Source: an uncultured Lachnospiraceae bacterium | GTDB lineage: Bacteria; Bacillota; Clostridia; Lachnospirales; Lachnospiraceae | Reading direction: 5' to 3' | Assembly: GCA_947629565.1 (NCBI GenBank) | Contig: CANREG010000004.1 | Span: 7,917-71,916 of the forward strand | Length of the DNA stretch: 64,000 nt | Shown: positions 4,362 to 63,567 of the stretch, in pieces | Layout of the letters: every line of letters starts with the position of its first letter | Numbering within the stretch: position 1 is the first letter of the stretch | Made by a program: the position numbers and the translations under genes | The notes under the pieces: model-generated | What the model was told of the DNA's origin: nothing | The model's input: the letters and a program-made list of their open reading frames with translations, nothing else | The model's database searches: none

Positions 4362-5579
4362 ATGTATATTAAGCGTGGAATTGAAGGGCAAATTGAATAT
4401 ATGGCGCAGCATTTTCCTGTGGTTATTCTCTGCGGCGCAAGACAGGTGGGGAAAACTACGGTATTGCGGAAAATGAGTGAGAAATTAGGAACGGATATTC
4501 AATATGTGACCTTGGATTATCCTAATATCCGTATGCTCGCCAAAGAGGACCCGGAGTTGTTTTTGCAGCAATATAAGACGCCGCTTATCATTGATGAGAT
4601 TCAATATGCGCCGGAGCTGCTTCCCTATATTAAAATCAGAGTGGACCGGGAACCGGTTTTGGGACAGTATTTTTTAACCGGCTCCCAGACATTTTCCTTG
4701 ATGCAGAATGTGGGTGAGTCTTTAGCGGGGCGGGCGGGAATATTATCTCTATATTCCTTAAGCAGGGCAGAGATTGAAGGAAGAGAAACGGTTCCTTTTC
4801 TGCCGGAAAATGTGAAAGCCAAAGAGTATCCGCATACGGTTTCTGATATTTTTGAGAAAATATATGGAGGCAGTATGCCAAAACGGGTTACGGATGAAGC
4901 GTTAAGCCCGGAGAATTTTTATGGTTCTTATATGCAAACTTATCTGGAACGGGATGTCCGCGCTCTGATTGCAGTCAAGGATGAGATAAAATTTACGAAA
5001 TTTATTTCCTGTCTTGCAGCGAGAACGGGACAGGAACTGGTGCTAAGTGATATTGCAAGAGATGTAGGGATTGACGGGAAAACGGCGGAGGGCTGGCTGT
5101 CGGTTTTGGTATCCTCCGGATTAGTCTATCTGTTGCAGCCCTATTTTCATAACACGATTAAAAGAATTGTAAAAAGGCCCAAACTTTATTTTATGGATAC
5201 AGGATTGGCTTGTTATCTGAGCTTGTGGAACAATCCCAGGGCTTTGGAATTGTCGGCTATGGCCGGGGCAATGTTTGAAACCTATGTGATATCGGAAATC
5301 ATAAAAAGCTATGCCTGTAACGGGCTGGATACAAAAAGCCGTCTATGTTATTATCGGGATAATAACGGAAAAGAGATTGACCTGATTATTGTAGAAAACG
5401 GCAGGCTGCACCCCATTGAAATTAAAAAAACAGCCGTAGTGGGTAAGGAGGCTTTGAAGAATTTTTCTGTTTTGAGTTCTTTCGGTATGGAAGTTGCCCA
5501 GGGCGGAGTGGTGTGTATGTCGCCGGTTGCGGTTCCGTTAGATTCCATGAATAAGGCAATACCTTTAGGGTGTATATAA
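4362..5579 (+). CDS. AAA+ ATPase of the AAA_14/DUF4143 type with a PD-(D/E)xK-like C-terminus
   Basis: Walker A GARQVGKTT and Walker B-like LIIDEIQ. C-terminal GKEIDLIIVENGRLHPIEIKKT resembles an ExD...ExK nuclease-fold motif. Confidence 0.75.
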   Translation: MYIKRGIEGQIEYMAQHFPVVILCGARQVGKTTVLRKMSEKLGTDIQYVTLDYPNIRMLAKEDPELFLQQYKTPLIIDEIQYAPELLPYIKIRVDREPVLGQYFLTGSQTFSLMQNVGESLAGRAGILSLYSLSRAEIEGRETVPFLPENVKAKEYPHTVSDIFEKIYGGSMPKRVTDEALSPENFYGSYMQTYLERDVRALIAVKDEIKFTKFISCLAARTGQELVLSDIARDVGIDGKTAEGWLSVLVSSGLVYLLQPYFHNTIKRIVKRPKLYFMDTGLACYLSLWNNPRALELSAMAGAMFETYVISEIIKSYACNGLDTKSRLCYYRDNNGKEIDLIIVENGRLHPIEIKKTAVVGKEALKNFSVLSSFGMEVAQGGVVCMSPVAVPLDSMNKAIPLGCI

Positions 5580-26838: not shown

Positions 26839-28812
26839 TTATTTCTCCATCTGTGTCAGGGACTTAGTACGGATTTCCTCGCATATCTTCTGAATGAAGG
26901 TATCAAGCGCCATAGCGCCCAAATCTCCGTCCTCGCCCCGTTTTCTTACGGATACGGTCTGGCTCTCCGCTTCGTTTGCACCCACAATCAGCATATAAGG
27001 CAGCTTTTGCAGCCGGGCTTCCCGAATCTTGTAGCCAATCTTTTCTGACCGGTCATCTAAGGTGGCAAGAATACCGTTCTTTTTCAACTCTTTTAAAATT
27101 TCTTCGCCGTAGGCGTGGAACTTCTCGGAGATGGGAAGAATCCGCACCTGCTCCGGTGCCAGCCAGGTTGGGAAGGCGCCGGCATATTTCTCAATCAGCC
27201 ACGCTAACGTTCTCTCATAGCAGCCCATGGAGGTACGGTGGATAATGTATGGCCGTTTCTTTTCTCCGTCCTTATCCACATAGTACATATCAAAACGCTC
27301 GGCTAAGAACATGTCTAACTGGATAGTAATCATGGTGTCTTCCTTGCCGTACACATTTTTTGCCTGAATATCCAGCTTCGGCCCGTAAAATGCAGCCTCT
27401 CCCTCTTCTTCCGTGTAGTCGATGCCAATCTCGTCTAAGATTACGCGCATCGCATCCTGTACTTTATCCCAGTCCTCGGCAGTCCCCAGATATTTATCCG
27501 CATCATTGGGATCCCATTTTGACATGCGGTAGGTGACGTCCTCTTCCACGCCTAATGTGGTCAGGCAGTATTTTGCCAGACGGACGCAGTTCTTAAACTC
27601 GTCGGCAATCTGTTCCGGGGTACAGATTAAATGGCCCTCGGAAATGGTAAACTGCCTTACTCTGGTAAGACCATGCATTTCCCCGGAGTCCTCGTTGCGG
27701 AACAGGGTAGAGGTCTCGCCCATGCGGTAGGGCAGATCCCGGTAGCTTTTCTGCTTTGCCTTGTACACAAAATACTGGAAGGGGCAGGTCATGGGACGCA
27801 GAGCCAGAATATCCTGGCCGGAGGCGGATACGCCGTTCTCGTCCTCATCATCATTTAACACGAACATGCCGTCCTTATAGTGATACCAGTGGTCGGATAG
27901 CTTGTATAAATCGGATTTAGCCATCAGCGGAGTTTTGGTTCTGACATAACCCCACTCATTGTCCTCTAAATCTTCAATCCATCTCTGCAATGTCTGTATA
28001 ATCTTGGCGCCCTTCGGCATCATCAGGGGAAGTCCCTGGCCGATGATGTCCACAGTCGTAAACAGCTCTAACTCGCGGCCTAAGCGGTTATGGTCGCGCT
28101 TTTTGATGTTTTCCAAAAATTCCAGCCGCTTTTCCAAGTCCTCCTTTTTGGTGTAGGCGGTTCCGTAAATGCGCGTCAGCATTTTGTTGTCGGAATTGCC
28201 TCTCCAGTAAGCGCCGGAGGAGGAGGTCAGCTTAAAGAACTTCACCGGTTTGGTGCTCATCAAGTGCGGACCGGCGCAAAGGTCGGTGAAATCGCCCTGC
28301 TCGTAAAAGCTTAAAACAGCATCTTCCGGCAGGTCGTTAATCAGCTCCACCTTGTAAGGCTCCTGCCGCTCCTCCATAAAATGAATTGCCTCTGCTCTGG
28401 GGAGCGTATAGCTGGTAATGGGAATGTTCTCTTTGACAATTTTCTTCATCTCGGCTTCAATCTTGTCTAATTCCTCGCGGCCTAAGGAGGGCATGTCAAA
28501 ATCATAGTAAAAGCCCTCGTCAATAGCCGGGCCGATTGTACATTTGGCGTCCGGATAAAGCCGCTTAACCGCCTGCGCTAAAATATGGGCGGCTGTGTGG
28601 CGGAACGCTTTCTTTCCGGCCTCGTCGTCAAAGGTTAAGATATTCAGGGTGCAGTCCTTATCCACAACGGTACGCAGGTCTACCACCTGTCCGTCTACTT
28701 CACCGGCGCAGGCCACTCTGGCAAGGCCCTCGCTGATATCCTTTGCAATGTCCAATACGCTTAAGCTTTCCGCATATTCTTTAGAAGAACCGTCTTTTAA
28801 AGTAATCTTCAT
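26839..28812 (-). CDS. thrS: threonine--tRNA ligase
   Basis: 657 aa. TGS domain at the N-terminus, editing-domain HTAAH motif, class II core and anticodon-binding domain. A Thr T-box lies upstream. Confidence 0.97.
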   Translation of the reverse strand: MKITLKDGSSKEYAESLSVLDIAKDISEGLARVACAGEVDGQVVDLRTVVDKDCTLNILTFDDEAGKKAFRHTAAHILAQAVKRLYPDAKCTIGPAIDEGFYYDFDMPSLGREELDKIEAEMKKIVKENIPITSYTLPRAEAIHFMEERQEPYKVELINDLPEDAVLSFYEQGDFTDLCAGPHLMSTKPVKFFKLTSSSGAYWRGNSDNKMLTRIYGTAYTKKEDLEKRLEFLENIKKRDHNRLGRELELFTTVDIIGQGLPLMMPKGAKIIQTLQRWIEDLEDNEWGYVRTKTPLMAKSDLYKLSDHWYHYKDGMFVLNDDEDENGVSASGQDILALRPMTCPFQYFVYKAKQKSYRDLPYRMGETSTLFRNEDSGEMHGLTRVRQFTISEGHLICTPEQIADEFKNCVRLAKYCLTTLGVEEDVTYRMSKWDPNDADKYLGTAEDWDKVQDAMRVILDEIGIDYTEEEGEAAFYGPKLDIQAKNVYGKEDTMITIQLDMFLAERFDMYYVDKDGEKKRPYIIHRTSMGCYERTLAWLIEKYAGAFPTWLAPEQVRILPISEKFHAYGEEILKELKKNGILATLDDRSEKIGYKIREARLQKLPYMLIVGANEAESQTVSVRKRGEDGDLGAMALDTFIQKICEEIRTKSLTQMEK

Positions 28813-29054
28813 TATTTTTTACTTCCTTTCCTTTTCTTTTCATTTTCGCAGTCAACGCCGTTTCCGTTATTGGAAATATTGACATAAATTCCCTTTTTAA
28901 TCGGGGAAAATAAAAATCCGCATACGGTTCCCATCAATACACAGAGGGAAACTAAAGATAACAAAGACTTGCGGGGAAAAGAAACTTCCTCCTCAAAAAA
29001 ATCCTTTACGGCGTCTGCGGCGCTGCATACATAATCCTTGATTGTCTCTAACAT
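28812..29054 (-). CDS. small single-pass membrane protein, translationally coupled to thrS
   Basis: 80 aa (MLETIKDYV...LLSLVSLCVLMGTVCGFLF...KKRKGSKK). Strong RBS GGAAAGGAG 7 nt upstream of ATG 29054. Its stop overlaps the thrS start (TAATG at 28810-28814). Confidence 0.5.
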   Translation of the reverse strand: MLETIKDYVCSAADAVKDFFEEEVSFPRKSLLSLVSLCVLMGTVCGFLFSPIKKGIYVNISNNGNGVDCENEKKRKGSKK

Positions 29055-29073
29055 ACCAAATCTCCTTTCCATT

Positions 29074-29318
29074 AAAAAATCCCTGACACAGCATAAGCTG
29101 CGCCAGGGACGATATCTCGCGGTTCCACCCCGGTTCCTGTGATTGCGCACATACAAATCACAGACACTTCATTCTGACGATATCGGAGTCACCGGCCTGT
29201 ATTAAAGGCTGCTCGGAGGTGGTGTTCAAAGGGTTTCCTTTGGGCTGCTTCCAGCAAGCGCAGCTCTCTCTGAAAAAGAAAACCAATCTACTGTCCTCGT
29301 CATCGCATTCTCATATAA
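29074..29318 (-). promoter_or_regulatory. T-box leader (Thr specifier) with intrinsic terminator
   Basis: On the minus strand: stem I with CAGAGAGAGC...; GAACACCACCTCCGAG carries tandem ACC (Thr) codons (plus coordinates 29218-29223); T-box sequence GGGGTGGAACCGCGAG (plus 29118-29134); terminator GTCCCTGGCGCAGCTTATGCTGTGTCAGGGATTTTTT (plus 29074-29110). Confidence 0.85.
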
Positions 29319-29325
29319 TACCTAA

Positions 29326-29354
29326 ATTGTAGACGAAACCTTCCCTAAAGTCAA
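29326..29354 (-). promoter_or_regulatory. sigma-A promoter of the T-box / small ORF / thrS operon
   Basis: Minus-strand TTGACT (plus 29349-29354), 17-nt spacer, TACAAT (plus 29326-29331). Confidence 0.65.
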
Positions 29355-29373
29355 GCCCTGTTTGACGGATATC

Positions 29374-29597
29374 CGTGCAAAGAAGTGTCTGAGCGCCGGG
29401 GAAGGGGTGTTGGGCAAACATCGTGCAGCCACGCTTTCGCTCTGTTGAAAACGCAGCGGTACATAAGCGGAGGCCCTGTTCATTATGTGATGAATAGCAA
29501 ATTTTCCATAGGGCCTCCGCAAGTACCGGCGTTTTCAAAGGGGCTGCTGATGTTTCCCAACTACCCCTCCCCACGGCGCGAGTTCTTCGGGAGCACG
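29374..29597. repeat. long-hairpin repeat element, copy A (full length, about 224 bp)
   Basis: Imperfect palindrome from CGTGC (29374) to GCACG (29597). The core hairpin at 29445-29538 has a 34-nt loop. The core is about 95% identical to the reverse complement of 54491-54616. Confidence 0.85.
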
Positions 29598-29692
29598 TGC
29601 AATAACACAGGCAAAACCGGCAGGCGGCAGGATTTCTTAAAACCGAAACCAGTGCAGGAAAAACAGGATAGGATTCTTCGGCGGCGGCAGAT

Positions 29693-29728
29693 ATAAAAAT
29701 TGGCGGATAACATAGGATATCCGCCAAT
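29693..29728 (-). terminator. intrinsic terminator of GH25 paralog 1
   Basis: Minus strand: ATTGGCGGATA-loop-TATCCGCCAAT, an 11-bp stem, followed by TTTTTAT. It lies 14 nt after the stop codon. Confidence 0.8.
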
Positions 29729-29741
29729 GGTAAAATTAAAT

Positions 29742-32093
29742 TTATATGAGTTTCAGGTAGGGGGATGCTATCCAGCCCTTGTAGGTTTTGCCGCTCTTTT
29801 TGAAGGTTACCTGATACCAGGTGACGCCCTTCTTGGTCTTGGTTTTTAAGACGGTCACTTTCTGGTTTTTCTTTAGAGTGGTTAGCTTTTTGGAGGAAGT
29901 GCCGACTGATTTATGGACATTTACAATATTTGTTTTGGTAACTTTACCGGTCATTTTAATGGTAACTTTAGAGGCCCGAACAAATCCTGTGTAGGTCTTG
30001 CCCTTGGATTTGTAGGACACCCTGTACCATGTGGCGTTTTTATCATCTTTTGTGCTATATGTAACAGTCATTGAAGTATTTTTTGCAGGGGTGGAAACTA
30101 CCGCATCGGCTGAGGAGGCTGACGCATAAAGCTTAGTTCCTTTTTTGGCAATTGCTTTTTTGCTGTATCCCAGTTTGGTATAAATAGCCGCTACGGGTGA
30201 ATAAGGGCTGTAGTAAGTTTCTCCACCGGAATTTTTATAACTGCGCACTTTATAATAATAACATTGTCCTCTTGTCAGACCGGTATTCTTGTAAGTAACC
30301 GTTGAATTCGTTGAAATTTGCTGAATCATTTGGTAGGTTCCGTTTAAAGAGGCCGATCTCCAGATCTGATAGCCGGTTGCTTCCGCATCTTTTGTCCATT
30401 GCAGGGTGATGTGCGTCTTGGAACGTTTCTTGGCTTTGACCGTGAGAGCTGTTTGGGAAAATTGGGAAATAATATTAAATTGAATTTTTTTCTCTCCGCA
30501 AAATCTACCTAAACCGGTAACTGTAATGGTAGCAACTCCCGGTTTGATGTTATCTGAATATTGCACGGTATAATCCAAGCCTTCTGTCAATGTGTTTCCC
30601 AAATAGGAGATAGAAACAGGAGGGGTAATCGCATTTCCTGAATATGCCTGATCCGGAATCGTGGAAAACTGAGCGTTAGCAATGTTGCAGGGAACAATAT
30701 TAAATGGAATTTCTTTCTTTGTGCCATAATAATCGCCCTTACCGGTAACTGTAATGGTAGCAACTCCCGGTTCCGTGTTATCTGAATATTGTACGGTATA
30801 ATCCAAGCCTTCTGTCAATGGTTTTCCCAAATAGGAGATAGAAACAGGAGGAGTAATCGCATTTCCTGAATATGCCTGATCCGGAATCGTGGAAAACTGA
30901 GCATCAGCAATGTTGTAACGAAAAATATTAAAATGAATTTTTTTCTCTCCTAAAAATTTGCCCTTACCGGTAACCGTAATGGTAGCAACTCCCGGTTTGA
31001 TGTTATCTGAATATTGCACGGTATAATCCGAGCCGTTTGTCAATGTGTTTCCCAAATAGGAGATAGAAACAGGAGGGGTAATCGCATTTCCTGAATATTC
31101 CTGATCTGAAATGGGAGAAAACCGGGCAGTAACAATGAGAATGCTGTCTGGGGTAAAAGATTTTTCTTGTGCATAGTAAAAATTCATATCTACATTTCCG
31201 GATATGCCGTTGACTTTGCCCTGGGAGCTGTACTGCCAGAAGTCAAAGGTGCCGGAATAGTCCGTGTTGGTGGTATAATGTGCCAGCCAGATTCGGTATC
31301 CGGCGTCGGTAATGGTGCTTGCATTAAGCTGACTATTTAACATGCTTTTGTTGGCATAGACCATGGGGGTATATCCGGCGTCTGCAATGGTTTTACAGAA
31401 AGCCATGCATACTTTCGTGGCTTCCTCTTTGGAAAGCTTGGCTTTTTTCAAGCGGCCGCCACCGCTGACATCGCTTGCATATTCATAATCCATGATTAAC
31501 GGCATGGAAATCCGGTAGGAGTCGATATGCTGCAAAATGTAATTCGCTTCCTCCTCAGCTTCCTCAGGAGTGATTGCCTGAGAAAAAATGTAAACGCCTA
31601 CCGGAACGCCTGCGGCATTGGCGTTTTGCATATTCTGGTCAAAATATATATCTTTGGTACTCTCATTTAAAATGCCTGCGTCTCCATAGCCGCGGTATCC
31701 CACGCGGACAAAAGCAAAATCAATGCCGGCGTTTTTTACGGCAGTCCAGTCAATATTCCCCTGCCATTGGCTGACGTCAATGCCGTTTACAACCGGGCGA
31801 CCTGTAAAGATATCCTGATGGCTGTAGGTGGAATTGGTAAAGGGGCTGTCAGTATCGAAGGTGCCAGACCTGCCGATTCCTGCCTTTGAGGGCGCTGTTT
31901 TCCCCAAATCCTTTTGGGTGTCTTCTCCGTAAAACTCGGCAGGGATATTCCTGCCGGAAAGCCTTCCGGCTCCGGGATCATCTGCCGCCATATCATTTTG
32001 AGCCGCATAGGAGATAGGGGCAGACATAATTACTAATAGTGTAAAAATGGCAATCGTGAAAATAACATGTGATAGTCTAAAGTTTTTAGTCAT
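29742..32093 (-). CDS. secreted GH25 muramidase with 3 Ig-like repeats, an Fn3 domain and two SH3-like domains
   Basis: Signal peptide; GH25 signature NGIDVSQWQGNIDWTAVKNAGIDFAFVRVGYRG; three 75-76-aa repeats (AYSGNAITPPVSISYLG..DYTVQYSDN..GVATITVTG.G); an Fn3 domain (GYQIWRS...YYYKVRSY); C-terminal SH3-like pair (WYRVSY.., WYQVTF..GWIASPYLKL). Confidence 0.9.
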   Translation of the reverse strand: MTKNFRLSHVIFTIAIFTLLVIMSAPISYAAQNDMAADDPGAGRLSGRNIPAEFYGEDTQKDLGKTAPSKAGIGRSGTFDTDSPFTNSTYSHQDIFTGRPVVNGIDVSQWQGNIDWTAVKNAGIDFAFVRVGYRGYGDAGILNESTKDIYFDQNMQNANAAGVPVGVYIFSQAITPEEAEEEANYILQHIDSYRISMPLIMDYEYASDVSGGGRLKKAKLSKEEATKVCMAFCKTIADAGYTPMVYANKSMLNSQLNASTITDAGYRIWLAHYTTNTDYSGTFDFWQYSSQGKVNGISGNVDMNFYYAQEKSFTPDSILIVTARFSPISDQEYSGNAITPPVSISYLGNTLTNGSDYTVQYSDNIKPGVATITVTGKGKFLGEKKIHFNIFRYNIADAQFSTIPDQAYSGNAITPPVSISYLGKPLTEGLDYTVQYSDNTEPGVATITVTGKGDYYGTKKEIPFNIVPCNIANAQFSTIPDQAYSGNAITPPVSISYLGNTLTEGLDYTVQYSDNIKPGVATITVTGLGRFCGEKKIQFNIISQFSQTALTVKAKKRSKTHITLQWTKDAEATGYQIWRSASLNGTYQMIQQISTNSTVTYKNTGLTRGQCYYYKVRSYKNSGGETYYSPYSPVAAIYTKLGYSKKAIAKKGTKLYASASSADAVVSTPAKNTSMTVTYSTKDDKNATWYRVSYKSKGKTYTGFVRASKVTIKMTGKVTKTNIVNVHKSVGTSSKKLTTLKKNQKVTVLKTKTKKGVTWYQVTFKKSGKTYKGWIASPYLKLI
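30480..31150. repeat. three near-identical tandem coding repeats of 225-228 bp inside GH25 paralog 1
   Basis: CCGGTAAC(T/C)GTAATGGTAGCAACTCCCGG recurs at 30514, 30742 and 30967, with long identical flanking runs. Confidence 0.9.
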
Positions 32094-32135
32094 ATTTATT
32101 TAGTCAACTCCTTTCAAAGAATATTTTTATTTGCG

Positions 32136-32197
32136 TCGAGGGGAGGGGCTGCATGATGTTTGCCCAACACCCCTTCCCCGGCGCTCAGACACTTCTT
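32136..32197. repeat. long-hairpin repeat element, copy B (internally deleted, about 60 bp)
   Basis: The reverse complement of 32147-32197 matches copy A at 29380-29430 with 1 mismatch. It is then joined directly to the CCCCTCCCC end of the opposite arm. It overlaps the stop codon of GH25 paralog 2 by 2 nt. Confidence 0.8.
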
Positions 32198-34049
32198 ACT
32201 GAAGTTTCAGGTAGGGGGATGCTATCCAGCCCTTGTAGGTTTTGCCGCTCTTTTTGAAGGTTACCTGATACCAGGTGACGCCCTTCTTGGTCTTGGTCTT
32301 TAGGACGGTTACCTTTTTGTTTTTCTTTAGGGTGGTCAGCTTTTTGGAGGAAATGCTGGCGGATTTCCGGACATTTACAATGCCGGTATTCGCCACTTTT
32401 CCGGTCATGTTAATCGTAACGCTGGAGGCAGTAACACACCCGGTATAGGTCTGTCCGCCTGCATTATAGGATACCCGGTACCATGTTGTGCCGTCATTAT
32501 CTTTTGCGCTGTATAATACGTTCATGGTGGCGCCGGTTCCCGGTGTGGAAACGGGTGCGCTTTCCGTAGACTCTGATTCATACAGGGTAGTCCAGCTCTT
32601 GGCAATGGCTTTTCTGGAATATCCCAGATTCGTGTAAAGAACAGTTACCGGAGAGAAATCACTGTAATAGGTGGTGCCGCCGGATTTCATGTAACTGCGT
32701 ACCTTGTAGTAATATCCCTGTCCCTTATTGAGTCCCGTATTCTTATAGGTATTTGTGGAGCCGCTGGAAATTTTCTTGATTTTCTTGTAGGTTCCGTTTA
32801 AAGAGGTGGCTCTCCAAATCTGATATCCGTCTGCTTTTGTATTTTTAGTCCACTTTAAGGTGATGTAAGTGGAGGAGCGTTTTTTTGCCTTTACCGAAGA
32901 TACCCGCTTGGGAAGAATCTGAAATTCCAGTTTGACGCTTCCGCAGAATTGGTTAATGCCGGTAACGGTAGCTGTGGCGGTTCCGAAGTCCTTGTTGTCC
33001 TTGTATTGCACGGTATAGTCGATGCCTTCCGTCAACGGCCACCCCATATAAGAGATACTGATCGGCGGGGTAATGCTGTCGCCGGTATAAGCCTGATTGG
33101 GAATCGGTGCAATGGTAGCGGTGGCAATCGGTATGCCCGCCGGAATGAAATTATCCCCTTCTCTTGCATAGTAAAAATTCATATCCACATTTCCGGTAAT
33201 GCCGCTTACCGCTCCGGAGGAGCTGTACTGCCAGAAGTCAAAGGTGCCGGCATAATCCGTGTTGGTGGTATAATGGGCCAGCCAGATCCGGTATCCGGCG
33301 TCGGTAATGGTGCTTGCATTAAGCTGATTATCTAACATGCTTTTGTTGGCATAGACCATGGGGGTATAGCCTGCAGCCGCAATGGTGTTACAGAAGGCCA
33401 TACAGACTTCCGTGGCCTGCGCCTTGGAAAGCTTGGCTTTTTTAATCCTGCCGCCACTGCTATCGTCGCTTGCATATTCATAGTCCATGATTAACGGCAT
33501 GGAAATCTGGTAGGCGCCGATGTGCTGCAAAATGTAAGTCGCTTCCTCCACAGCTTCTGCAGGGGTGATTGCCTGGGAAAAAATGTAAATGCCTACCGGA
33601 ACGCCTGCGGCATTGGCGTTTTGCATATTCTGGTCAAAATATACATCTTTGGTACTCTCATTTAAAGTGCCTGCATCTCCATAGCCACGGTACCCCACAC
33701 GGACAAAAGCAAATTCAATGCCGGCTGCTTTCACAGCAGCCCAGTCAATATTTTTCTGCCACTGGCTGATATCAATACCGTTGGCAATCCGGCGTCCTGC
33801 AAAAATATCCTGATGGCTGTAGGCGGAATTGGTAAAGGGGCTGATGGTATCAAAAGTGCCGTACCGGGCAATTCTTGCAATTGGCCCTGCGTCCTCCCCG
33901 TAAAATTCGGCGGGGATGTTCCTGCCGGAAAGCCTTCCGGCTCCCGGATCGTCATTAGCTGCACGGCAGGTCAGCCCTGCGCCGGTTATGAATAATGTAA
34001 ATAAAGTAATCGTAGAAATAAGGCGTAATAATCTGTAATGCTTAGTCAT
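32196..34049 (-). CDS. secreted GH25 muramidase paralog (1 Ig-like repeat, Fn3, two SH3-like domains)
   Basis: Same architecture as 29742-32093 but with a single Ig-like repeat. Long DNA tracts are identical or nearly identical to the paralog. Confidence 0.9.
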   Translation of the reverse strand: MTKHYRLLRLISTITLFTLFITGAGLTCRAANDDPGAGRLSGRNIPAEFYGEDAGPIARIARYGTFDTISPFTNSAYSHQDIFAGRRIANGIDISQWQKNIDWAAVKAAGIEFAFVRVGYRGYGDAGTLNESTKDVYFDQNMQNANAAGVPVGIYIFSQAITPAEAVEEATYILQHIGAYQISMPLIMDYEYASDDSSGGRIKKAKLSKAQATEVCMAFCNTIAAAGYTPMVYANKSMLDNQLNASTITDAGYRIWLAHYTTNTDYAGTFDFWQYSSSGAVSGITGNVDMNFYYAREGDNFIPAGIPIATATIAPIPNQAYTGDSITPPISISYMGWPLTEGIDYTVQYKDNKDFGTATATVTGINQFCGSVKLEFQILPKRVSSVKAKKRSSTYITLKWTKNTKADGYQIWRATSLNGTYKKIKKISSGSTNTYKNTGLNKGQGYYYKVRSYMKSGGTTYYSDFSPVTVLYTNLGYSRKAIAKSWTTLYESESTESAPVSTPGTGATMNVLYSAKDNDGTTWYRVSYNAGGQTYTGCVTASSVTINMTGKVANTGIVNVRKSASISSKKLTTLKKNKKVTVLKTKTKKGVTWYQVTFKKSGKTYKGWIASPYLKLQ

Positions 34050-34313: not shown

Positions 34314-34386
34314 GGGCCGCTAGCTCATTTGGTAGAGCACCTGACTCTTAATCAGGGTGTGCGGGGTTCGAGCCCCCGGCGGCCCA
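34314..34386 (+). tRNA. tRNA-Lys (anticodon CUU)
   Basis: 73-nt cloverleaf. Acceptor stem GGGCCGC/GCGGCCC, D arm GCTC..GAGC, anticodon stem CCTGA/TCAGG with loop CTCTTAA, T arm CGGGG-TTCGAGC-CCCCG. CCA is not encoded. Confidence 0.95.
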
Positions 34387-44114: not shown

Positions 44115-44149
44115 TATTTCACTTCCGGACATTCGATACAAGATAAGGA

Positions 44150-45628
44150 TTAATTGGAAGCAGCAAATAGGGCGGCAATCTCCTCCGGCGTAAGCTGCTT
44201 GTTAGGATCATTAGATATAGGTTGTATGTTGACCGGTTCTTTCTTTGGAGCCGGTTCAGCAGCAGCAAATAGGGCAGCAATCTCATCCGGCGTAAGCTGT
44301 TTGTTGGGATCATCGGATATAGGAGTTACAACTGGCTCCGGCGCTGTTTCTGCCTTTGGCTCTTTTTTGGGAGCAGGCTCGGCAGCAGCAAACAAAGCGG
44401 CAATTTCATCCGGTGAAAGCTGCTTGTTGGGATCATCCCCTAAATCGCCGATTGTCTTAAACGGTGTGGATTCCTCTACAGGCTCTTTTTCGGCTGCCGT
44501 ATTAGGAACAGTCGTTTCTGCGGGTTCTTCTATAGCTGCCGTATCAGGAATAGTCGTTTCTGCGGGTTCTTCTATAGCTGTTGTATCAGGAACAGTCGTT
44601 TCTGCAGATCCTTCCGTATCCTCTGCAATAAAGTCTGCAGCATTAGCATTGTCTTCCGCTGCTTCCTGTCCGTCAGATTTACCAACCACCGTAAAGGTAG
44701 GAGTAAATGCCTCTGCAGTTTCGGCAATATCGCTATTTTCTGTGTCTGCCGTGAAGGATTCTGAAGGCTCATCTTCATCGGCTGCCGCTTCGGTTATCGG
44801 TTCCTCCATTGTTTCTGCTGTTGGCTCTGCAATTGCTTTTTCTGTAGCTTCTGTCAGTTCGTCGGCTGCCGGTTCTGTAACCATATCCTCTGCCGGCGCT
44901 GCCTGCATGGTTTCAGGGGCAAAAGCATTTGGCATATTGCCCATTGGTTGTATATTGGAGGCAAACTGGATATGCTGGATGCTGTTGGACACATTTTGTA
45001 ATTCTCTTGCTATACTGTTAAGCTGTACGCCCATTTCTTGGTCCATGTTGCCGGATTGACTCTTTAAGTATTCTACAATATCTCCCAAAGTGTTGACGAT
45101 GTCCGAATTATCCGGCTGCAGCTGGTCAAATCCCTGTACCATTGTGTCGCTTAACTGGTTTCTCAAATCCTTAATGGTAGAAATCACCTTGGTAGTATTG
45201 CTCTGGTCATATTTAATCATCAGCTTGGTAGCTTTGTTGTGGGCGTTGGAAAGAGAAATCAGATTCTTATAGAGGGCTTCCTGGCTTTCACTGTAATTGT
45301 TCTCCAGAGTAGCCACGCTTTGAGCCGCCTTGCGGGTATACAGGTAGGTGGCTTTCCCAATCTGCGACTGCACGCCGCTCATGGCCTCAATCTGATTGGC
45401 AATGCCGTCTACGGAATTCTTTATCTGTACATTCAGGGATTTATTCCTCATGGTGGCAAAGGAAATAATGCTCTGTGTCAGAATAAAAGCGCAGATTAAA
45501 AATAATGCGCTCATGCCGATTACCGCAAAAAAAATATTGTGATACATAATCAAAGTATAGATTAATCCAATGCCGGACGTCAGGGTGGCCAGTACCCAGA
45601 CTGCAAGCTTATTGTCCTGTTTGCTCAT
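44150..45628 (-). CDS. membrane-anchored helical protein with an acidic low-complexity region and three C-terminal EIDAL-like repeats
   Basis: Two N-terminal TM helices, a helical domain of about 170 aa and an Ala/Glu/Thr/Pro-rich spacer. Then 3 repeats: DDPNKQL(S/T)P(D/E)EIAALFAA(A/S). RBS GGAGGG. Confidence 0.75.
   Translation of the reverse strand: MSKQDNKLAVWVLATLTSGIGLIYTLIMYHNIFFAVIGMSALFLICAFILTQSIISFATMRNKSLNVQIKNSVDGIANQIEAMSGVQSQIGKATYLYTRKAAQSVATLENNYSESQEALYKNLISLSNAHNKATKLMIKYDQSNTTKVISTIKDLRNQLSDTMVQGFDQLQPDNSDIVNTLGDIVEYLKSQSGNMDQEMGVQLNSIARELQNVSNSIQHIQFASNIQPMGNMPNAFAPETMQAAPAEDMVTEPAADELTEATEKAIAEPTAETMEEPITEAAADEDEPSESFTADTENSDIAETAEAFTPTFTVVGKSDGQEAAEDNANAADFIAEDTEGSAETTVPDTTAIEEPAETTIPDTAAIEEPAETTVPNTAAEKEPVEESTPFKTIGDLGDDPNKQLSPDEIAALFAAAEPAPKKEPKAETAPEPVVTPISDDPNKQLTPDEIAALFAAAEPAPKKEPVNIQPISNDPNKQLTPEEIAALFAASN
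44153..44455. repeat. coding repeats that specify the three DPNKQL(S/T)PxEIAALFAAA motifs
   Basis: GCAGCAAATAGGGC(G/A)GCAATCTC(C/A)TCCGG(C/T)G.AAGCTG.TTGTT.GGATCAT recurs three times on the plus strand. Confidence 0.85.
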
Positions 45629-48371: not shown

Positions 48372-49409
48372 ATGAATAAGAAACAGACCACCTGGTTTAT
48401 TGTGGCAGCCGTTATCTTTATTGTGGGCGGTATTGCCAGCGTGTTGACCAACGCCCTTTCTGAGCGGTTGGCGGCAGACAGTGAGGAGCAGATGACTTCC
48501 AGTTTTGGAAGCATTATGGATAGCCTGTATGGAACGGGGGATGTGTCCGCCATGTTGGCGGATATGCCGAAAGGCGAAGATTTTATCGCAGTCCTTCCCA
48601 TAGAGGGAACCATTCAGGCGTCCGGCGGCGCCAGCATTTACAGCGGGGAAGGTTATAATCATGATCTGCTGATGGCGTATGTGAATAAACTGATAGACAA
48701 CGACGCAAACAAGGGCATTATCCTGCGTTTAGATACGCCGGGCGGAACGGTTTATGAGGCCGACGAGCTTTATCTGAAGCTGATGGAGTATAAGGAAAAG
48801 ACCGGGCGGCCAATCTGGGCATACATGGAGAGTATGTGCTGCTCCGGCGGCGTATACATTGCCTCCTCTTCTGACGAGCAGTACGCCAACCGGATTACCA
48901 CAACCGGCTCTATCGGCGTTATCATGTCAAATTATGACATGTCGGGACTTTACAAGAAATTGGGCATTAAGGAAGTAAATATTGTATCTGCGGAGAATAA
49001 GGACATGGGTTCTGCCGGAAAGCCGATGACCAGCGAACAGAAGGCAATCTACCAGTCTGTAGTTGACGAGTATTACGAGCAGTTTGTGGGAATTGTGGCA
49101 AAGGGACGGAATATGTCTGAAGCGGAAGTAAAGAAGCTGGCTGACGGAAGAATCTATACGGCGAAACAGGCGGTGGAGAACGGACTGATTGACGGTATCA
49201 AGACCTCGGAGGAATTTGACGCCTATGTGAAGGAAACCAGCGGCGTGGATTTGTTCTACGAGCCGAAAAGCTCCGGCGGTTATCTTTCCAGCCTGATGGG
49301 TTCTGTAAAGCCGGAGAAGGAGAAGACCGAGGCAGAGGTACTTGTTGATTTGATGAACCAGTTAGGAAGCGGGGTGCCAATGTATTATGCAAAACCAATC
49401 GGAGAATAA
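48372..49409 (+). CDS. sppA: signal peptide peptidase SppA (36K type)
   Basis: N-terminal TM anchor and ClpP/crotonase-fold motifs (LRLDTPGGTVYEA, CCSGGVYIASSSD). Confidence 0.8.
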   Translation: MNKKQTTWFIVAAVIFIVGGIASVLTNALSERLAADSEEQMTSSFGSIMDSLYGTGDVSAMLADMPKGEDFIAVLPIEGTIQASGGASIYSGEGYNHDLLMAYVNKLIDNDANKGIILRLDTPGGTVYEADELYLKLMEYKEKTGRPIWAYMESMCCSGGVYIASSSDEQYANRITTTGSIGVIMSNYDMSGLYKKLGIKEVNIVSAENKDMGSAGKPMTSEQKAIYQSVVDEYYEQFVGIVAKGRNMSEAEVKKLADGRIYTAKQAVENGLIDGIKTSEEFDAYVKETSGVDLFYEPKSSGGYLSSLMGSVKPEKEKTEAEVLVDLMNQLGSGVPMYYAKPIGE

Positions 49410-50166
49410 GGCGTATGCCGGTTTCTTTGTCAGGCTTGTCGCCTACGCCATTGACAGTATGCTGGCTGCGCTGCTGGTGAGCATTGTCAAGCTTCCCCTG
49501 TCGATAGCAGCTTCTGCCGGAGCCGGTTTTTTGAAAGCGAACTTCATCTTTCACTATTCCCTTTTGGATGTGCTGGGTTATATTGGGGTTGCCGCATATT
49601 TTGTGCTGCTGACGTATTTTGCCCATGGAACGCCTGGCAAGCTACTGTTCCGCCTGCGGGTGGTTACGGAAGACAGGGAATGGACGTTTTTAAATATCCT
49701 GTACCGGGAAACGGTGGGCAGATTTTTGTCCTCCCTGCTGTGCATCGGGTATCTGGCTATTATCGTGACAGAGAAAAAGCAGGGATTTCATGATATGCTT
49801 TCCGACACCTATGTAGTATATGCAGGCATGGCGCCGGTGGCAAAGCCGGAGGCAGAGACCTCTTTTGTGCGGCTGGGTAAGCCGGAACCCGCAGACAGCG
49901 CCGTTTCCTTGCAGGCGGATAAAGCGGGCGAAGAATCTTCTTTGCAGGCGGGCAAAGCGGGCGAAGAATCTTCCTTGCAGCCGGGTAAAGCGGTTGGCGG
50001 AGAATCTTCTTTGCAGTCAGGCAAGGCGGAGTCTCTTAACGGCCAGGGAACCGGGACTGCGGGTGAAACAACTGCGCCGATCTATCATACAAGGTCTGCT
50101 TTTGAGATGCAGGAGAGCCACCCGATATCAGTGGAACCGGATGCCGGAGCAGACGGGGATGTGTAG
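49387..50166 (+). CDS. RDD-family membrane protein with a repeat-containing C-terminal tail
   Basis: YAGFFVRLVAYAIDS..., HDMLSDTYVV. The tail has 11-12-aa tandem repeats LQA(D/G)KAGEESS. It overlaps the sppA 3' end by 23 nt. Confidence 0.7.
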   Translation: MQNQSENKAYAGFFVRLVAYAIDSMLAALLVSIVKLPLSIAASAGAGFLKANFIFHYSLLDVLGYIGVAAYFVLLTYFAHGTPGKLLFRLRVVTEDREWTFLNILYRETVGRFLSSLLCIGYLAIIVTEKKQGFHDMLSDTYVVYAGMAPVAKPEAETSFVRLGKPEPADSAVSLQADKAGEESSLQAGKAGEESSLQPGKAVGGESSLQSGKAESLNGQGTGTAGETTAPIYHTRSAFEMQESHPISVEPDAGADGDV

Positions 50167-50330
50167 TATTGATTGGGGGGACGAGAGGTGTTTGGCAGAT
50201 AATTCGTGTAATTATATAAGGCTTAATAATGTTTTTGTCAGAATTGAGCATAATACTAAATAAATGTTAAAAAAAGAGTTAATGAACTCAAATATGAAAT
50301 AAGTAGCAAGAGTTAAGAGAAGGTGTGTGC

Positions 50331-51836
50331 ATGACAATAGAAGAACTTAAAAGACTTATCAATACAGGTGAAAAAGTTGATATTGAATTTAAGAAATCAC
50401 ATGATAAATTGAATAGAGATTTATATGAGACAGTATGTTCTTTTAGCAATAGAGATGGTGGACACATTTTTCTTGGTATAGTCGATGAAACAAGGGAAAT
50501 ATGTGGGATTAATCCTGATAAAATTGATAAAATGAAGAAAGAGTTCACGACAGCTATTAATAATTCTAAAAAAATTAACCCTCCTATGTATCTTGTTCCA
50601 GAGGATTATGAAATTGATGGAAAGAAGATTATATATATTTATGTGCCAAAGGGTACACAGGTGAGACGGGTAAATGGCCGCATTTTTGACAGAACATATG
50701 AAGGCGATATTGATATTACAGACAATGCAGAATTAGTTTATAAATTGTATGCGAGAAAACAAAACACATATTTTGTAAATAAGGTATATTCAAATTTGGG
50801 ACTGGAATTTTTGGATTTTGACGTTATCAGAAGAGCAAAAAAACTGGCATTGGCAAGGGTAGATAATCATGCATGGACCAATATGGATGAAGAAGAAATT
50901 CTCAGGAGTTCAGGTTTGATTTTAACAGATCCAGATACAGGAAAGGAAGGAATTACTCTTGCTGCAATACTACTTTTTGGTAAAGATAGTACAATTATGT
51001 CGGTATTACCGCAATACAAGACAGATGCAATTTACAGAGTAAAAAATATGGATCGCTATGATGATAGAGAAGTTGTTATAACAAATCTTATAGACAGTTT
51101 CCGTCTTTTAATGGATTTTGGTAAAAAGCATTTAAATGATGTTTTTGTGACGGAAGGAGATCAAAGTATAAGTGCAAGAGATAAAATCCTTAGAGAAGTT
51201 GTGTCAAATATCTTAGTGCATAGGGATTATTCTAATGGATATACAGCCCAGTTTGTAATAGAGAGAGATAAGTTATATACCAAGAATAGTAATTTGCCAC
51301 ATGGACATGGTGAGTTACAGCTCAATAAATTTGATCCATTTCCAAAGAATCCACTAATTTCTAAAGTATTTAGAGAAGTTGGATATGCCGATGAATTGGG
51401 TTCAGGAATGAGAAACGCCAACAAATACACAAAATTATATTCAGGTGGAACGCCAATTTTTGTTGAAGATGATATTTTTGAAATAGTTATTCCAATAGAA
51501 GCAGTTGCCGAGTTACAGGTTGGGGGAAGTGGCACTCAGGATGGCACCCAGGATGGCACTCGGAATGGCACTCAGGATGGCACCCAGAATGGCGCTTGGA
51601 ATGGCACTCAGCAACGGAATGGCACTCAGGATGGCACTCAGAATGGCACTCAGGATGGCACTCAGCAACGGATAATGGAACTGATATTAGAAAACCCAAA
51701 GATTACGAGAAGAGAAATGGCAAGGCGACTTAATGTTAGTCTTAGGACGTTGCAAAGAATATTAAATAAAATGCCTACAGTAAATTATGAAGGAACAGGA
51801 ATAAATGGTCATTGGCAGATTGATAGGGATTTATAA
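50331..51836 (+). CDS. AlbA_2 (Schlafen-like) / ATPase-like / wHTH putative DNA-binding protein with a GTQ(D/N) tetrapeptide repeat linker
   Basis: N-terminal [11 protein letters not shown]...[13 protein letters not shown] is typical of AlbA_2. A central HATPase_c_4-like region ([22 protein letters not shown]) and a C-terminal wHTH ([21 protein letters not shown]) follow. AT-rich. Confidence 0.7.
51531..51670. repeat. 12-bp tandem coding repeat (about 11 units, GGCAC(T/C)CAG(G/A)AT)
   Basis: GGCACTCAGGAT GGCACCCAGGAT GGCACTCGGAAT ... encodes [47 protein letters not shown]. Confidence 0.9.
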
Positions 51837-54172: not shown

Positions 54173-54430
54173 AGCAATCCTCCTTTTCATCTCATATTTT
54201 AATCTTCTGTCTCTTATTCTACCCTTTTTTATCCCGTATTTCAAGGATATGTTTCCATTCTTCCCACTTTCTTCTTACTTTATATATAAAAATATCAGAT
54301 AGCTTCTGTCTTCACCGCCACCTCGCTACATATCTTTTTTTTTATTTTATATTATAGAAATATTATCACAGGATAAAATTTTCGCTTTTTCATACGGATT
54401 TTAATTTATAGAATTTCCGCCGCCAAACTG

Positions 54431-54685: not shown

Positions 54686-54822
54686 GTCCCTTGACAAAAA
54701 AATATACTTAATAATTTTGTAATATGTTGTGGTTTGTCAAAAATAATTGGTACATATTGTGTTTTTGACGAAAATACAAAGAATATACTAGATTTTGGAA
54801 ACGATTATTTGTTGAATAAAGG

Positions 54823-59154: not shown

Positions 59155-60342
59155 ATGGAGAAATTGTTGTTTACGTCTGAGTCCGTAACAGAAGGACATC
59201 CCGACAAAATTTGCGACCAGATTTCCGACGCCGTATTGGACGCCTTAATGGCGCAGGATCCGAACAGCCGCGTTGCCTGTGAAACTTCGATTACCACAGG
59301 TCTTGTACTGGTTATGGGAGAAATTTCCACCAATGCCTATGTGGATATTCAGAAGATTGTGCGGGACACAATCCGGGAGATAGGCTATGACCGGGCAAAA
59401 TACGGTTTTGACTGCGATACCTGCGGCGTGATTACCGCCATTGACGAGCAGTCCAGCGACATTGCCATGGGCGTGGACAAGGCTTTAGAGGCAAAGGAAA
59501 ACCAGATGAGCGATGCGGATATTGAGGCCATTGGCGCAGGCGACCAGGGCATGATGTTCGGCTACGCCACCAACGAGACGGAGGAGTATATGCCGTATCC
59601 AATCAGTCTGGCGCACAAGCTGGCGAGAAGGCTTACGGAGGTCCGGAAAAACGGAACCCTTCCGTATCTTCGTCCAGACGGAAAGACGCAGGTATCCGTA
59701 GAATATGACGAGGCGGGCAAGCCGGTCCGCTTAGAGGCAGTGGTGCTTTCCACACAGCATGATGCGGAGGTATCACAGGAGCAGATTCATGAGGATATCA
59801 AGAAATATGTATTTGATGCGGTGTTACCGGCAGAAATGGTGGATGGGGATACAAAGTTCTTTATCAACCCCACCGGACGCTTTGTCATCGGCGGCCCGAA
59901 CGGGGATTCCGGCCTTACGGGGCGTAAGATTATTGTCGATACCTACGGCGGCTACGCCCGTCATGGCGGCGGCGCATTTTCCGGCAAGGACTGTACCAAG
60001 GTAGACCGCTCTGCGGCATATGCCGCCAGATATGTGGCAAAAAATATTGTGGCAGCAGGATTGGCAGACAAATGCGAGATTCAGCTTTCCTATGCGATTG
60101 GCGTGGCGAGACCGACCTCTGTCCGGGTGGACACTTTTGGCACAGGCAAGCTCGACGAGTTAAAGCTGGTGGAAATTGTGCGGGAAAACTTTGACCTTCG
60201 CCCGGCGGGCATTATCAAGATGTTAGACCTGCGCCGCCCGATTTATAAGCAGACTGCGGCATACGGTCATTTTGGACGGACAGACTTAGATTTGCCATGG
60301 GAGAAGCTTGACATGGTGGACAAGTTAAAGAGTTATCTGTAA
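59155..60342 (+). CDS. metK: methionine adenosyltransferase
   Basis: [34 protein letters not shown], and GGGAFSGKD. Confidence 0.97.
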
Positions 60343-61784: not shown

Positions 61785-62609
61785 ATGAATAAGGCAGAGC
61801 TTCAGCAAAAAGCAAACCAGTTGAGAAAGCACATTGTAGCTTCCCTCCATGCCGCCAAAAGCGGGCATCCGGGAGGCTCCCTGTCTGCGGCGGATATAAT
61901 GACTTATTTATATTATGAGGAGATGAATATTGATCCGAAAAAGCCGGAAAAGGAAGACAGGGACCGTTTTGTATTGTCCAAGGGACATGTGGCGCCTGCG
62001 CTTTACGGCGTTCTTGCCATGAAGGGATATTTTCCGGAGGAGGAGCTGTTAAAGCTGCGCAAGACTGGCGAGATGCTTCAGGGGCATCCCGATATGAAGG
62101 GAACGCCGGGAGTGGATATGTCTGCGGGTTCTCTGGGACAGGGCGTGTCCGTTGCAGTGGGAATGGCTCTTTCCGCAAAACTTTCCGGTGAGCAGTACCG
62201 GGTGTATACCCTGTTAGGCGACGGTGAGATTGAAGAAGGACAGGTCTGGGAGGCAGCTATGTTTGCCGGGCATAGGAAACTGGATAATCTGGTGGTTATC
62301 GTGGACAACAATGATTTGCAGATTGACGGAAGTGTGGCGGACGTCTGCTCCCCATATCCGATTGCAGATAAATTCAAGGCGTTTAACTTCCATGTCGTTG
62401 AGATTGACGGACATGATTTTGACGCGATTGAGGCGGCATTTAAAGAGGCAAGGCAGACGAAGGGAATGCCGACAGCCATTATCGCAAAGACCGTAAAGGG
62501 AAAGGGCGTGTCCTTTATGGAGAACCAGGTTTCATGGCACGGCGCGGCGCCCAATGATGAACAGTACGAAACGGCAATGGCGGAATTAGAAAAGGCAGGT
62601 GAAGCGTAA
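61785..62609 (+). CDS. transketolase, N-terminal subunit
   Basis: SGHPGGSLS, GHVAPALY and GSLGQG, the TPP-binding motifs. Start at ATG 61785 (RBS AAGGAG, 7-nt spacing). Confidence 0.92.
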   Translation: MNKAELQQKANQLRKHIVASLHAAKSGHPGGSLSAADIMTYLYYEEMNIDPKKPEKEDRDRFVLSKGHVAPALYGVLAMKGYFPEEELLKLRKTGEMLQGHPDMKGTPGVDMSAGSLGQGVSVAVGMALSAKLSGEQYRVYTLLGDGEIEEGQVWEAAMFAGHRKLDNLVVIVDNNDLQIDGSVADVCSPYPIADKFKAFNFHVVEIDGHDFDAIEAAFKEARQTKGMPTAIIAKTVKGKGVSFMENQVSWHGAAPNDEQYETAMAELEKAGEA

Positions 62610-63547
62610 TGGCAGATGTGAAGAAGATTGCTACCCGGGAAAGCTATGGCAATGCTTTGGTGGAGTTAGGCAGGGAATATCCGGATTTATTGGTGTTAGA
62701 TGCAGATTTGGCGGCTGCCACCAAGACCGGGATTTTTAAAAAGGAATTTCCCGAACGCCATATCGACTGCGGTATTGCAGAGTGTAATATGATGGGAATT
62801 GCGGCGGGCCTGTCTTTGACCGGAAAGGTGCCGTTTGCTTCCAGCTTTGCCATGTTTGCGGCGGGCAGGGCCTATGAGCAGGTGCGCAACACCATAGGTT
62901 ATCCCAAGTTGAATGTGAAGATTGGCGCCACCCATGCGGGAATTTCTGTGGGCGAGGACGGGGCAACCCACCAGTGTAATGAGGATATTGCCCTGATGCG
63001 CACGATTCCCAATATGGTGATTATTAACCCATGTGATGATGTGGAGGCGAGGGCGGCAGTACGGGCAGCATATGAGCATAAAGGCCCGGTGTATCTTCGT
63101 TTTGGCCGTCTGGCCGCGCCTGTGATTAATGACAGGCCGGATTATAAATTCGAGCTTGGCAGGGGCGTAACCCTTCGGGAAGGAAAGGATATTACCATTG
63201 TGGCGACAGGCCTTGAGGTTAATTTTGCCTTAGAGGCCGCAAAGATGCTTGCGGATGACGGTGTTGATGTAAGGGTAATCAATATCCATACCATTAAGCC
63301 TATCGATAAGGATATTATCGTTAAGGCGGCGAAGGAGACGAAAAAGCTGTTCACTGTGGAGGAACACTCTGTTATCGGCGGTCTTGGCTCTGCCGTATGC
63401 GATGTGGTATGTGAAAATGCTCCGGTTCCGGTCTATAAGATTGGCATGCGTGACCGGTACGGCGAGTCCGGCCCGGCTGTGGAGCTTCTGCATAAATATG
63501 AACTGGATGCGGAGGGAATCTATAAGCAGGTGAAGGGAAATCTGTAG
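62609..63547 (+). CDS. transketolase, C-terminal subunit
   Basis: Pyrimidine-binding and C-terminal domains (IAECNMMGIAAGL, GATHQ). Its start overlaps the upstream stop (TAATG). Confidence 0.92.
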   Translation: MADVKKIATRESYGNALVELGREYPDLLVLDADLAAATKTGIFKKEFPERHIDCGIAECNMMGIAAGLSLTGKVPFASSFAMFAAGRAYEQVRNTIGYPKLNVKIGATHAGISVGEDGATHQCNEDIALMRTIPNMVIINPCDDVEARAAVRAAYEHKGPVYLRFGRLAAPVINDRPDYKFELGRGVTLREGKDITIVATGLEVNFALEAAKMLADDGVDVRVINIHTIKPIDKDIIVKAAKETKKLFTVEEHSVIGGLGSAVCDVVCENAPVPVYKIGMRDRYGESGPAVELLHKYELDAEGIYKQVKGNL

Positions 63548-63567
63548 GATAGATTGCAGAATATACG

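Follow-up and report, generated by a model that had tools for sequence, protein, structure and literature searches.

What kind of element is the long imperfect palindrome that lies between a lysozyme gene and the promoter of thrS in an uncultured Lachnospiraceae bacterium, and what keeps it palindromic? The palindrome (copy A) occupies positions 29374-29597 (plus strand) of a 64,000-nucleotide (nt) stretch of contig CANREG010000004.1 (assembly GCA_947629565.1). This stretch is referred to below as the window, and coordinates are those of the window unless another contig is named. An earlier reading of the window, made from its letters alone and referred to here as the original prediction, had described the palindrome as one copy of a long-hairpin repeat. 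Intergenic palindromic repeats (REP, ERIC and MITEs, the miniature inverted-repeat transposable elements) occur commonly in bacteria, and the movement of most of them is poorly understood. The analysis presented here places copy A in a multi-copy, non-coding hairpin family that is specific to two lineages and leaves truncated remnants; the family is undescribed and belongs with the bacterial intergenic palindromic repeats. The element is under two constraints: near-invariance of sequence at the center, in a module of about 125 nt that includes a bulge and internal loops, and a requirement only for pairing in the arms.

A family of long hairpins and their remnants

Folded as RNA, the plus strand of copy A forms a single long, slightly irregular hairpin in its minimum-free-energy structure (-125.4 kcal/mol, z-score against shuffles -9.9). 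The minus strand reaches -124.6 kcal/mol (z -10.1) and, with DNA parameters, the hairpin reaches -72.7 kcal/mol (z -9.45); none of the shuffles matched the folding energy of copy A. The sequence at 29374-29597 is as the original prediction had described it, an imperfect palindrome that forms one long hairpin with a z-score of about -10 as RNA or DNA. The statement that it is not a random palindrome also holds. The size of 224 bp, however, is that of the portion still paired and not that of the element: as the profile and a related contig show, the palindrome is what remains, after truncation, of a hairpin of about 0.5 kb.

An nhmmer profile built from six full copies aligned its model positions 171-538 with window positions 29355-29727. 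The related contig, L012, is 3.3 kb long, comes from Logan and belongs to the same species as the window (ThrS 99% identical); it carries the missing left outer arm at exactly the position of copy A, adjoining the thrS promoter. The sequence GGATATCCG beside that promoter is common to the window and L012, after which the left outer arm follows in L012 only; about 150 nt of the left arm have been deleted from copy A by comparison. Because L012 retains the left arm that copy A is without, copy A is identified as a deletion derivative of the ~0.5-kb element, extending over ~29363-29741 (plus strand; nhmmer and L012 alignment) with a complete right arm and no left outer arm. Its right outer arm (29598-29741, plus strand), which was aligned to the right arms of all copies of the second genome described below and includes the conserved motif GGCGGCAGGATTTCTTAAAACCGAAACCAGTGCAGGAAAAA at 29623-29663, was left without its pairing partner by this deletion.

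The predicted position next to the thrS T-box promoter was likewise borne out. The T-box (RF00230) was found at 29102-29312 on the minus strand with 96.4 bits, and the promoter of its leader, TTGACT-17-TACAAT, at 29326-29354 on the same strand. The palindrome starts 19 nt upstream of the -35 box and the element as a whole ends 8-19 nt upstream of it. The promoter is context and not part of the element; it is kept in relatives without the element.

Two further copies are present in the window. Copy C (54350-54687, minus strand; nhmmer model positions 168-507) consists of a 261-nt hairpin at 54427-54687 (-140.1 kcal/mol, z -13.3) and a decayed right outer arm at 54350-54426. Its core at 54485-54615 (minus strand) forms an inverted repeat of 131 nt, at 95%, with the core of copy A at 29427-29557; the original prediction had seen this recurrence as a reverse complement near 54491-54616. 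Copy B, which was absent from the original prediction, is a 51-nt left-arm fragment at 32147-32197 (minus strand; model positions 192-244, E 3e-13). It is inverted relative to copy A, lies 2.7 kb away and has 98% complementarity to 29380-29430. It shares bases with the stop codon of the GH25 gene 32196..34049 and breaks off at the point at which the bulge would start. The gene copies around this fragment are only ~82% identical, and because of the difference between 98% and ~82% the sequences point to a recent local event (e.g., a template switch or a conversion) as the probable origin of copy B, later than the GH25 gene duplication.

Copies outside the window were sought by scanning an exact 24-nt core string against one genome per species for 185,579 species. 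It matched seven loci, all in a single metagenome-assembled genome (MAG), CANQMR01, of an uncultured Lachnospiraceae bacterium from a sample labelled 'Lapin' (rabbit gut). The nhmmer profile added an eighth copy in this MAG besides A, B and C in the window, which confirms the predicted multi-copy family and brings its total to 11 copies or fragments (three in the 64-kb window and at least eight in CANQMR01). Arms of the MAG copies measure 222-272 nt and their hairpins 493-586 nt, with folding energies of -327 to -398 kcal/mol as RNA; with DNA parameters, copy L004 reaches -236.7 kcal/mol (z -31.7). Copy L007 is shortened to 174 nt, as copy C is also shortened. The decay products thus comprise the left-arm deletion in copy A (relative to L012), the 51-nt fragment B and the 174-nt L007. 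The break points of three independently truncated copies (window 29374-29380, window 32197 and L007 ~5092-5111) fall within ~10 nt of one place in the element, the GCACGTGC/GAAGAAG internal-loop region, a candidate fragile or cleavage site.

Apart from the element, the MAG loci and the window have no substantial similarity in nucleotide sequence; the remaining matches are one of 172 nt at 69% and one of 47 nt at 83%. In everything searched, only two gut Lachnospiraceae lineages carry it, and this narrow distribution limits its general importance. A practical consequence is that the element generates spurious open reading frames (ORFs) and breaks short-read assemblies, as in L012, which terminates within the element. 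Hairpins that break assemblies could also suggest that the family itself is an assembly artefact, or a chance palindrome. Against this, the same architecture was recovered in three independent assemblies (the window, the Logan contig and the metaSPAdes MAG), the copies of the window and the MAG are far from the ends of their long contigs, and the z-scores of the folds range from -10 to -32; we regard the probability of an artefact as negligible.

Searches for known relatives of the element gave the following results. Reading frames across it are broken by the variable loop, and a chimeric six-frame query yielded no predicted-protein match among 5.8 billion proteins, in agreement with the absence of a coding role noted earlier. 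Rfam gave no match to the element in the window at the gathering score; at permissive E-values, copy A gave only a 10-bit chance match to snoR9 and the full copy L004 gave none, so that the earlier failure to recognize an RNA family was upheld at both thresholds. Using blastn (word size 11), copy A and a full copy showed no similarity to 72,556 plasmids, copy A had no match among phages, and a full copy had none in 5,426 E. coli genomes. Exact-pattern scans of viral contigs and JGI metagenomes, the latter also with a structure-style gapped pattern, gave 0 matches. No transposase, recombinase, HUH or reverse-transcriptase domain was detected in 60 ORFs from ~115 kb of the window and the MAG loci; the 40 window ORFs among them include no transposase-like domain, as had been stated for the window.

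An invariant core within arms that need only pair

Ten copies from the two genomes were aligned, and conservation was found to be arranged in three tiers. The core tier, from AAACATC to GATGTTT minus the apical segment, is invariant in almost every column (~125 nt, 97-100% identical in the 10 copies). It includes the bulge ACGCTT(T/G)CGCTC(T/C)G and the internal loops ATAA/AA and AG. In copy A the core module occupies 29427-29557 (plus strand) and is built from the stems TTGAAAACGC, CGGTAC and GCGGAGG with fixed internal loops, the variable apical segment excepted. The one-sided bulge, ACGCTTTCGCTCTG at 29431-29444 (plus strand) in copy A, holds a 2-bp mini-hairpin and is unpaired in every fold. 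Its conservation, proposed from two copies, extends to all 10, with one base deleted in L003.

The inner unit, ~337 nt long and running from TTTCCYGACAYGCGG to CAGTGCRGRAAA, shows 82-98% identity between copies. The outer arms (outermost 110 nt per side) have 56-70% identity between copies, as compared with a shuffle baseline of 58%, and within a copy they are 75-87% complementary; in L001 and L004 they contain perfect complementary runs of 38-60 nt. The least conserved part of the family is the apical segment of ~36 nt, with almost no conserved positions in alignment columns 163-200 (29477-29510, plus strand, in copy A). In other copies it forms a small covarying hairpin of its own, in which the closing pairs 161/202 and 162/201 covary (AU, CG, GC). 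The 34-nt loop had been taken as sequence-constrained, but it is conserved only between copies A and C and is hypervariable across the family; the constraint resides in the flanking module of stem, bulge and internal loops.

In the RNAalifold consensus of the 10 copies, 98.2% of the cells pair. Changes on both sides were observed in 18 of the 83 pairs, whereas shuffles gave 7.4 +/- 1.7 and none of 500 reached 18; controls with slid partner columns yielded no more than five double-change pairs. The arm covariation seen between two copies is thereby substantiated for the family. One compensatory change, from G-C to A-U at pair 134/225, lies inside the invariant core. The landmarks CCGCC...GGCGG and GGCGGATAA occur at fixed distances in all copies, and because they recur in this way the outer arms are considered diverged element sequence; inverted duplications of the host flank, a candidate explanation of the outer arms, were ruled out on the same ground. 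The family is unusually large for its kind, and the separation of a sequence-invariant module of ~125 nt, with fixed bulges, from ~200 bp of helix constrained only to pair is unusually clean. It therefore offers a natural test case for whether long hairpins are kept complementary by structural selection or by template switching.

Two MAG copies, L006a and L006b (L006 587-1172 and 6662-7158), lie in the same orientation 6 kb apart. Their inner 337 nt are 98% identical and their outer arms 65-70%, which suggests gene conversion that was probably confined to the conserved part.

A conversion tract of this appearance would also be expected if the family were neutral palindromic debris, i.e., an old, functionless foldback repeat kept palindromic only by template switching, with its core kept by gene conversion. 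Replication template switching is known to create and maintain hairpins and quasipalindromes (PMC8794818, PMC5941160), the long perfect runs in arms otherwise unrelated between copies fit its products, and truncated and partly deleted copies exist. However, the core keeps its near-identity in two genomes with next to no other similarity at the nucleotide level, and conservation drops in steps along structural modules, not with distance. Template switching would moreover erase bulges, and yet the bulge and the internal loops are kept in 10 of 10 copies; these features are therefore selected and, since they exist only in the single-stranded fold, imply a single-stranded reading. We consider purely neutral debris quite improbable.

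Genomic setting and possible mode of action

The neighbors of the element in the window are GH25 lysozymes, thrS, a SleB-like hydrolase and SipL; those in the MAG are ppk1/infC, a ZIP transporter with purE, a small alarmone synthetase, an ABC exporter, mazF/corC, a Mur ligase, a radical-SAM enzyme and icd. Copies are single, dispersed and intergenic among such ordinary housekeeping genes. Seven MAG copies have a gene reading into them, and the distance from its stop codon to the base of the hairpin is -33 to +23 nt.

At both window loci, close relatives are without the element. At the site of copy A, no profile match was found in seven relative loci (ThrS 93-94% identical), in which the spacer from the GH25 gene to thrS is short. 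At the site of copy C, no match was found in 21.5 kb each of the loci with SipL 91% and 85% identical, in which the spacer is ~270-390 nt shorter. These comparisons show that the element has evidently been gained or lost between close relatives.

Whether the element is read as RNA or as DNA bears on its mode of action. A structured RNA would be either a cis-acting hairpin in an untranslated region (for processing or stability, e.g., as a substrate of RNase III) or a rod-like non-coding RNA, transcribed on its own, with a protein-binding core. Covarying helices with conserved internal loops and a conserved bulge are a classic RNA signature, and the hairpin starts ~30 nt or less from the upstream gene's stop codon, so that read-through would transcribe it. 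The forward strand (= the plus strand of copy A) folds better by 2-23 kcal/mol in all seven full copies. The consensus helices contain 19 G.U cells versus 6 A.C cells (G.U on the other strand), a count that leans weakly toward the forward strand but is not decisive: a single conserved U.G pair, 130/229, accounts for eight of the 19 and is kept in 8 of the 9 copies with letters there. Arm-versus-arm alignments of nine copies gave 31 G.T and 24 A.C mismatches, no clear G.U excess, with most mismatches of neither type.

Orientation relative to the gene reading into the element is forward in four cases and reverse in four, which makes a strand-specific cis-RNA role unlikely. A promoter-like site (TTGACA-18-AATTAT, 54740-54711) is aimed into copy C. 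Promoter scans detected no conserved sigma-70 promoter within the element or next to it. The inner hairpin has T5 before it and A5 after it in either orientation; because an A run and not a T run follows, it is not itself a terminator. Canonical terminator-like hairpins in the outer arms occur in only two of eight copies. In copy A (winA) the terminator scan found an 11-bp stem followed by TTTTATATCT at 29699-29728 on the minus strand, within the right outer arm; the stop codon of the GH25 gene 29742..32093 precedes it by 13 nt and is 3-14 nt distant from the end of the element. In L006b the homologous hairpin is GGCGGATA...TATCCGCC. Inward-facing terminators in both outer arms were considered as a family feature and rejected, since they are clear only in these two copies.

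The original prediction had taken the constrained loop and the covarying arms as a pointer to a structured RNA, or to a DNA cruciform or MITE. Covariation alone does not single out RNA: the mismatch counts show no clear G.U strand bias, and the perfect runs of 38-60 nt in unrelated outer arms look like DNA-templated homogenization, so that template switching at the DNA level fits at least as well. There is no Rfam match either. In our judgment a structured RNA is a live rival reading, though an unlikely one.

Folded single-stranded DNA (ssDNA) or a cruciform would be a different medium for the same fold. The attC sites of integrons and the attP(+) site of CTX phage function in a hairpin whose stems need only pair. 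Sites of the attC type stand in cassette arrays next to intI and have R''/L''...L'/R' boxes ending in GTTRRRY. The present element also keeps bulged bases and sequence blocks in stems that need only pair, and could accordingly be imagined as a structure-specific recombination site (as attC or the CTX-phage attP hairpin) or as an RNA-polymerase priming or promoter hairpin (as sso). Its hairpin is equally stable with DNA parameters, it has no orientation bias relative to transcription, and its extrahelical bases are conserved on one arm, as used for strand choice by attC-type and sso-type sites. In ssoA-type origins, specific bulged bases and a few conserved sequence blocks give strand specificity (PMC5703833, PMC4598088); the RSB and CS-6 (TAGCGT) blocks lie in ~160 nt of folded ssDNA on a rolling-circle replicon (PMC4598088). 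The reverse strand of the bulge, GAGCGAAAGCGT, contains two 5-of-6 matches to the CS-6 box (PMC4598088), a resemblance at chance level (about 0.1).

The settings differ, however. Sites of the attC, attP and sso types measure 60-300 nt and are tied to an integrase, phage or plasmid, whereas the present copies are dispersed on the chromosome, singly and among housekeeping genes rather than in cassette arrays or on a plasmid or integrative and conjugative element. No integrase domain was found in the window (GTTRRRY was not formally scanned), no integrase or relaxase nearby in the scanned ORFs, and no similarity to the plasmids searched by blastn. Measured against the prevailing gene direction, which stands in for replication, five copies are oriented the same way and six the opposite way (our own tally against the ORF lists). 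We rate a folded-ssDNA or cruciform site of these kinds as very unlikely.

In architecture the element is closest to ERIC and REPINs, and it is a member of no such family. ERIC (or IRU) sequences are non-coding, imperfect intergenic palindromes found in either orientation and often at gene 3' ends. The central inverted repeat is described as most conserved, the copy number as lineage-dependent and the mobilization mechanism as not known (PMC10969869; Hulton 1991, Wilson & Sharp 2006 cited there). The likeness (imperfect palindrome, conserved central inverted repeat, intergenic position, either orientation) is one of architecture only: ERIC is ~127 bp and gammaproteobacterial, whereas this element is ~500-590 bp, occurs in Lachnospiraceae and had no blastn match in the E. 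coli genomes searched. REPINs are non-autonomous hairpin repeats whose movement, as ssDNA hairpins, is attributed to a single-copy enzyme in trans (PMC3116915, PMC6006769). They share with the present family long hairpins in which pairing is preserved between copies, but their REP units (20-40 nt) are conserved at the ends around a variable middle, while this element is conserved at the center and varies at the ends. It is also four to five times larger than ERIC or a REPIN, and no Y1/HUH (RAYT, Y1_Tnp-type) domain was present in the 60 scanned ORFs.

Among bacterial MITEs (Correia, RUP, BOX, SPRITE, bcr1, QMITE2), some lie in 3' untranslated regions or mimic terminators, and Correia hairpins are cut by RNase III (PMC10969869). 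The element resembles them in being small, non-coding, multi-copy, intergenic, stably folded, and present or absent between related genomes; by analogy, its function may resemble that of Correia- or SPRITE-type MITEs at gene 3' ends. It differs from them in pairing along its full length and not at the termini only. Among the 60 ORFs scanned, no parent insertion sequence or transposase with matching ends was found. No conserved terminal inverted repeats were found, the hairpin termini being different in every copy. No direct repeat was found at the boundaries of the six full copies, where the ends are set by arm complementarity so that very short target-site duplications are possible. The short-list of the original prediction (a structured RNA, a DNA cruciform or a MITE with a specific protein partner) is thus still right in its breadth, but the classical MITE hallmarks of termini and target duplications were not found.

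Our favored reading, held with middling confidence, is that copy A is a decayed member of a non-coding, foldback-type interspersed repeat that acts or propagates as a single-stranded hairpin, with its core read by a trans-acting partner. Such an element would be non-autonomous and would have spread by insertion, and it would work or propagate as a single-stranded hairpin, be it extruded or replicative ssDNA or RNA. The invariant asymmetric core would serve as the recognition module for a trans-acting protein, either a mobilizing enzyme or a host factor. The arms would need only to zip up, their complementarity being kept through selection on the hairpin and helped by replication template switching in the quasipalindrome, and the element would land, or be retained, at gene 3' ends.

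Several observations weigh against this reading. No mobilizing enzyme was found among the 60 ORFs scanned. Because the termini are copy-specific and no target-site duplication is visible, the rule that a transposase recognizes the ends of a MITE does not apply, and a conserved center with variable ends is the reverse of a classical MITE. The near-identity of the core despite randomized arms suggests selection at each locus, or gene conversion between copies, and not simple selfish spread. Among the relative loci, no empty site alignable to base-pair resolution was obtained, and mobility rests on presence and absence between species rather than on polymorphism within a population. Finally, only two genomes among all those searched are carriers.

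A bolder version of the favored reading, which we put forward tentatively and consider doubtful, is that the family represents an unrecognized class of element: a rod-like hairpin of ~0.5 kb, organized around an invariant asymmetric central module, that would propagate or act without terminal recognition sequences, by way either of folded ssDNA whose center is read by an enzyme or of long, rod-shaped RNAs with a conserved central region, its arms being continuously re-templated on each other. The family is in any case a natural test case for what reads long hairpins; should there be a partner protein, the core would be a bait ready for use.

Neighboring features of the window

Two tandem paralogues of a GH25 + SH3_3 lysozyme gene, encoding 783 and 617 amino acids (aa), are located at 29742-34049 on the minus strand, where relatives have a single gene. 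The first paralogue contains three tandem repeats of 225-228 nt at 30468-31137. Both stop codons are followed by sequence of the element: copy A lies ~13 nt behind the first, and copy B overlaps the second. The hairpin may thus have taken part in the gene duplication. On the other side of copy A, a small ORF of ~80 aa (28812-29060, minus strand) is situated between the T-box terminator and thrS, with which it is apparently co-regulated; it combines a hydrophobic stretch with a lysine-rich tail. It is kept in L012 (415-657) and in a further contig, L013 (2440-2679), and is absent in relatives of the L008 type.

A tRNA gene is present at 34314-34386, and the ORF 44150..45628 (minus strand) contains in-frame tandem repeats with units of 42 nt and ~110 nt (region 44133-44614). 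The ORF 50325-51836 (plus strand) combines Schlafen AlbA_2 and winged-helix domains and carries a 12-nt tandem repeat at 51525-51680. It looks inserted, because the RDD and SpoIIT genes that flank it are adjacent to each other in the relatives L015 and L017. The RDD-family gene 49387..50166 itself contains 33-nt in-frame tandem repeat units (region 49894-50029).

A SAM riboswitch was identified at 58968-59073, upstream of the S-adenosylmethionine synthetase gene 59155..60342. A terminator-like hairpin of the rho-independent type (GTTTTTGCACTGAAATGCAAAAAC, then a T run) occurs in tandem duplicate at 63555-63665, after the ORF 62609..63547; synteny with L015 identifies this ORF as the gene for the C-terminal subunit of transketolase.

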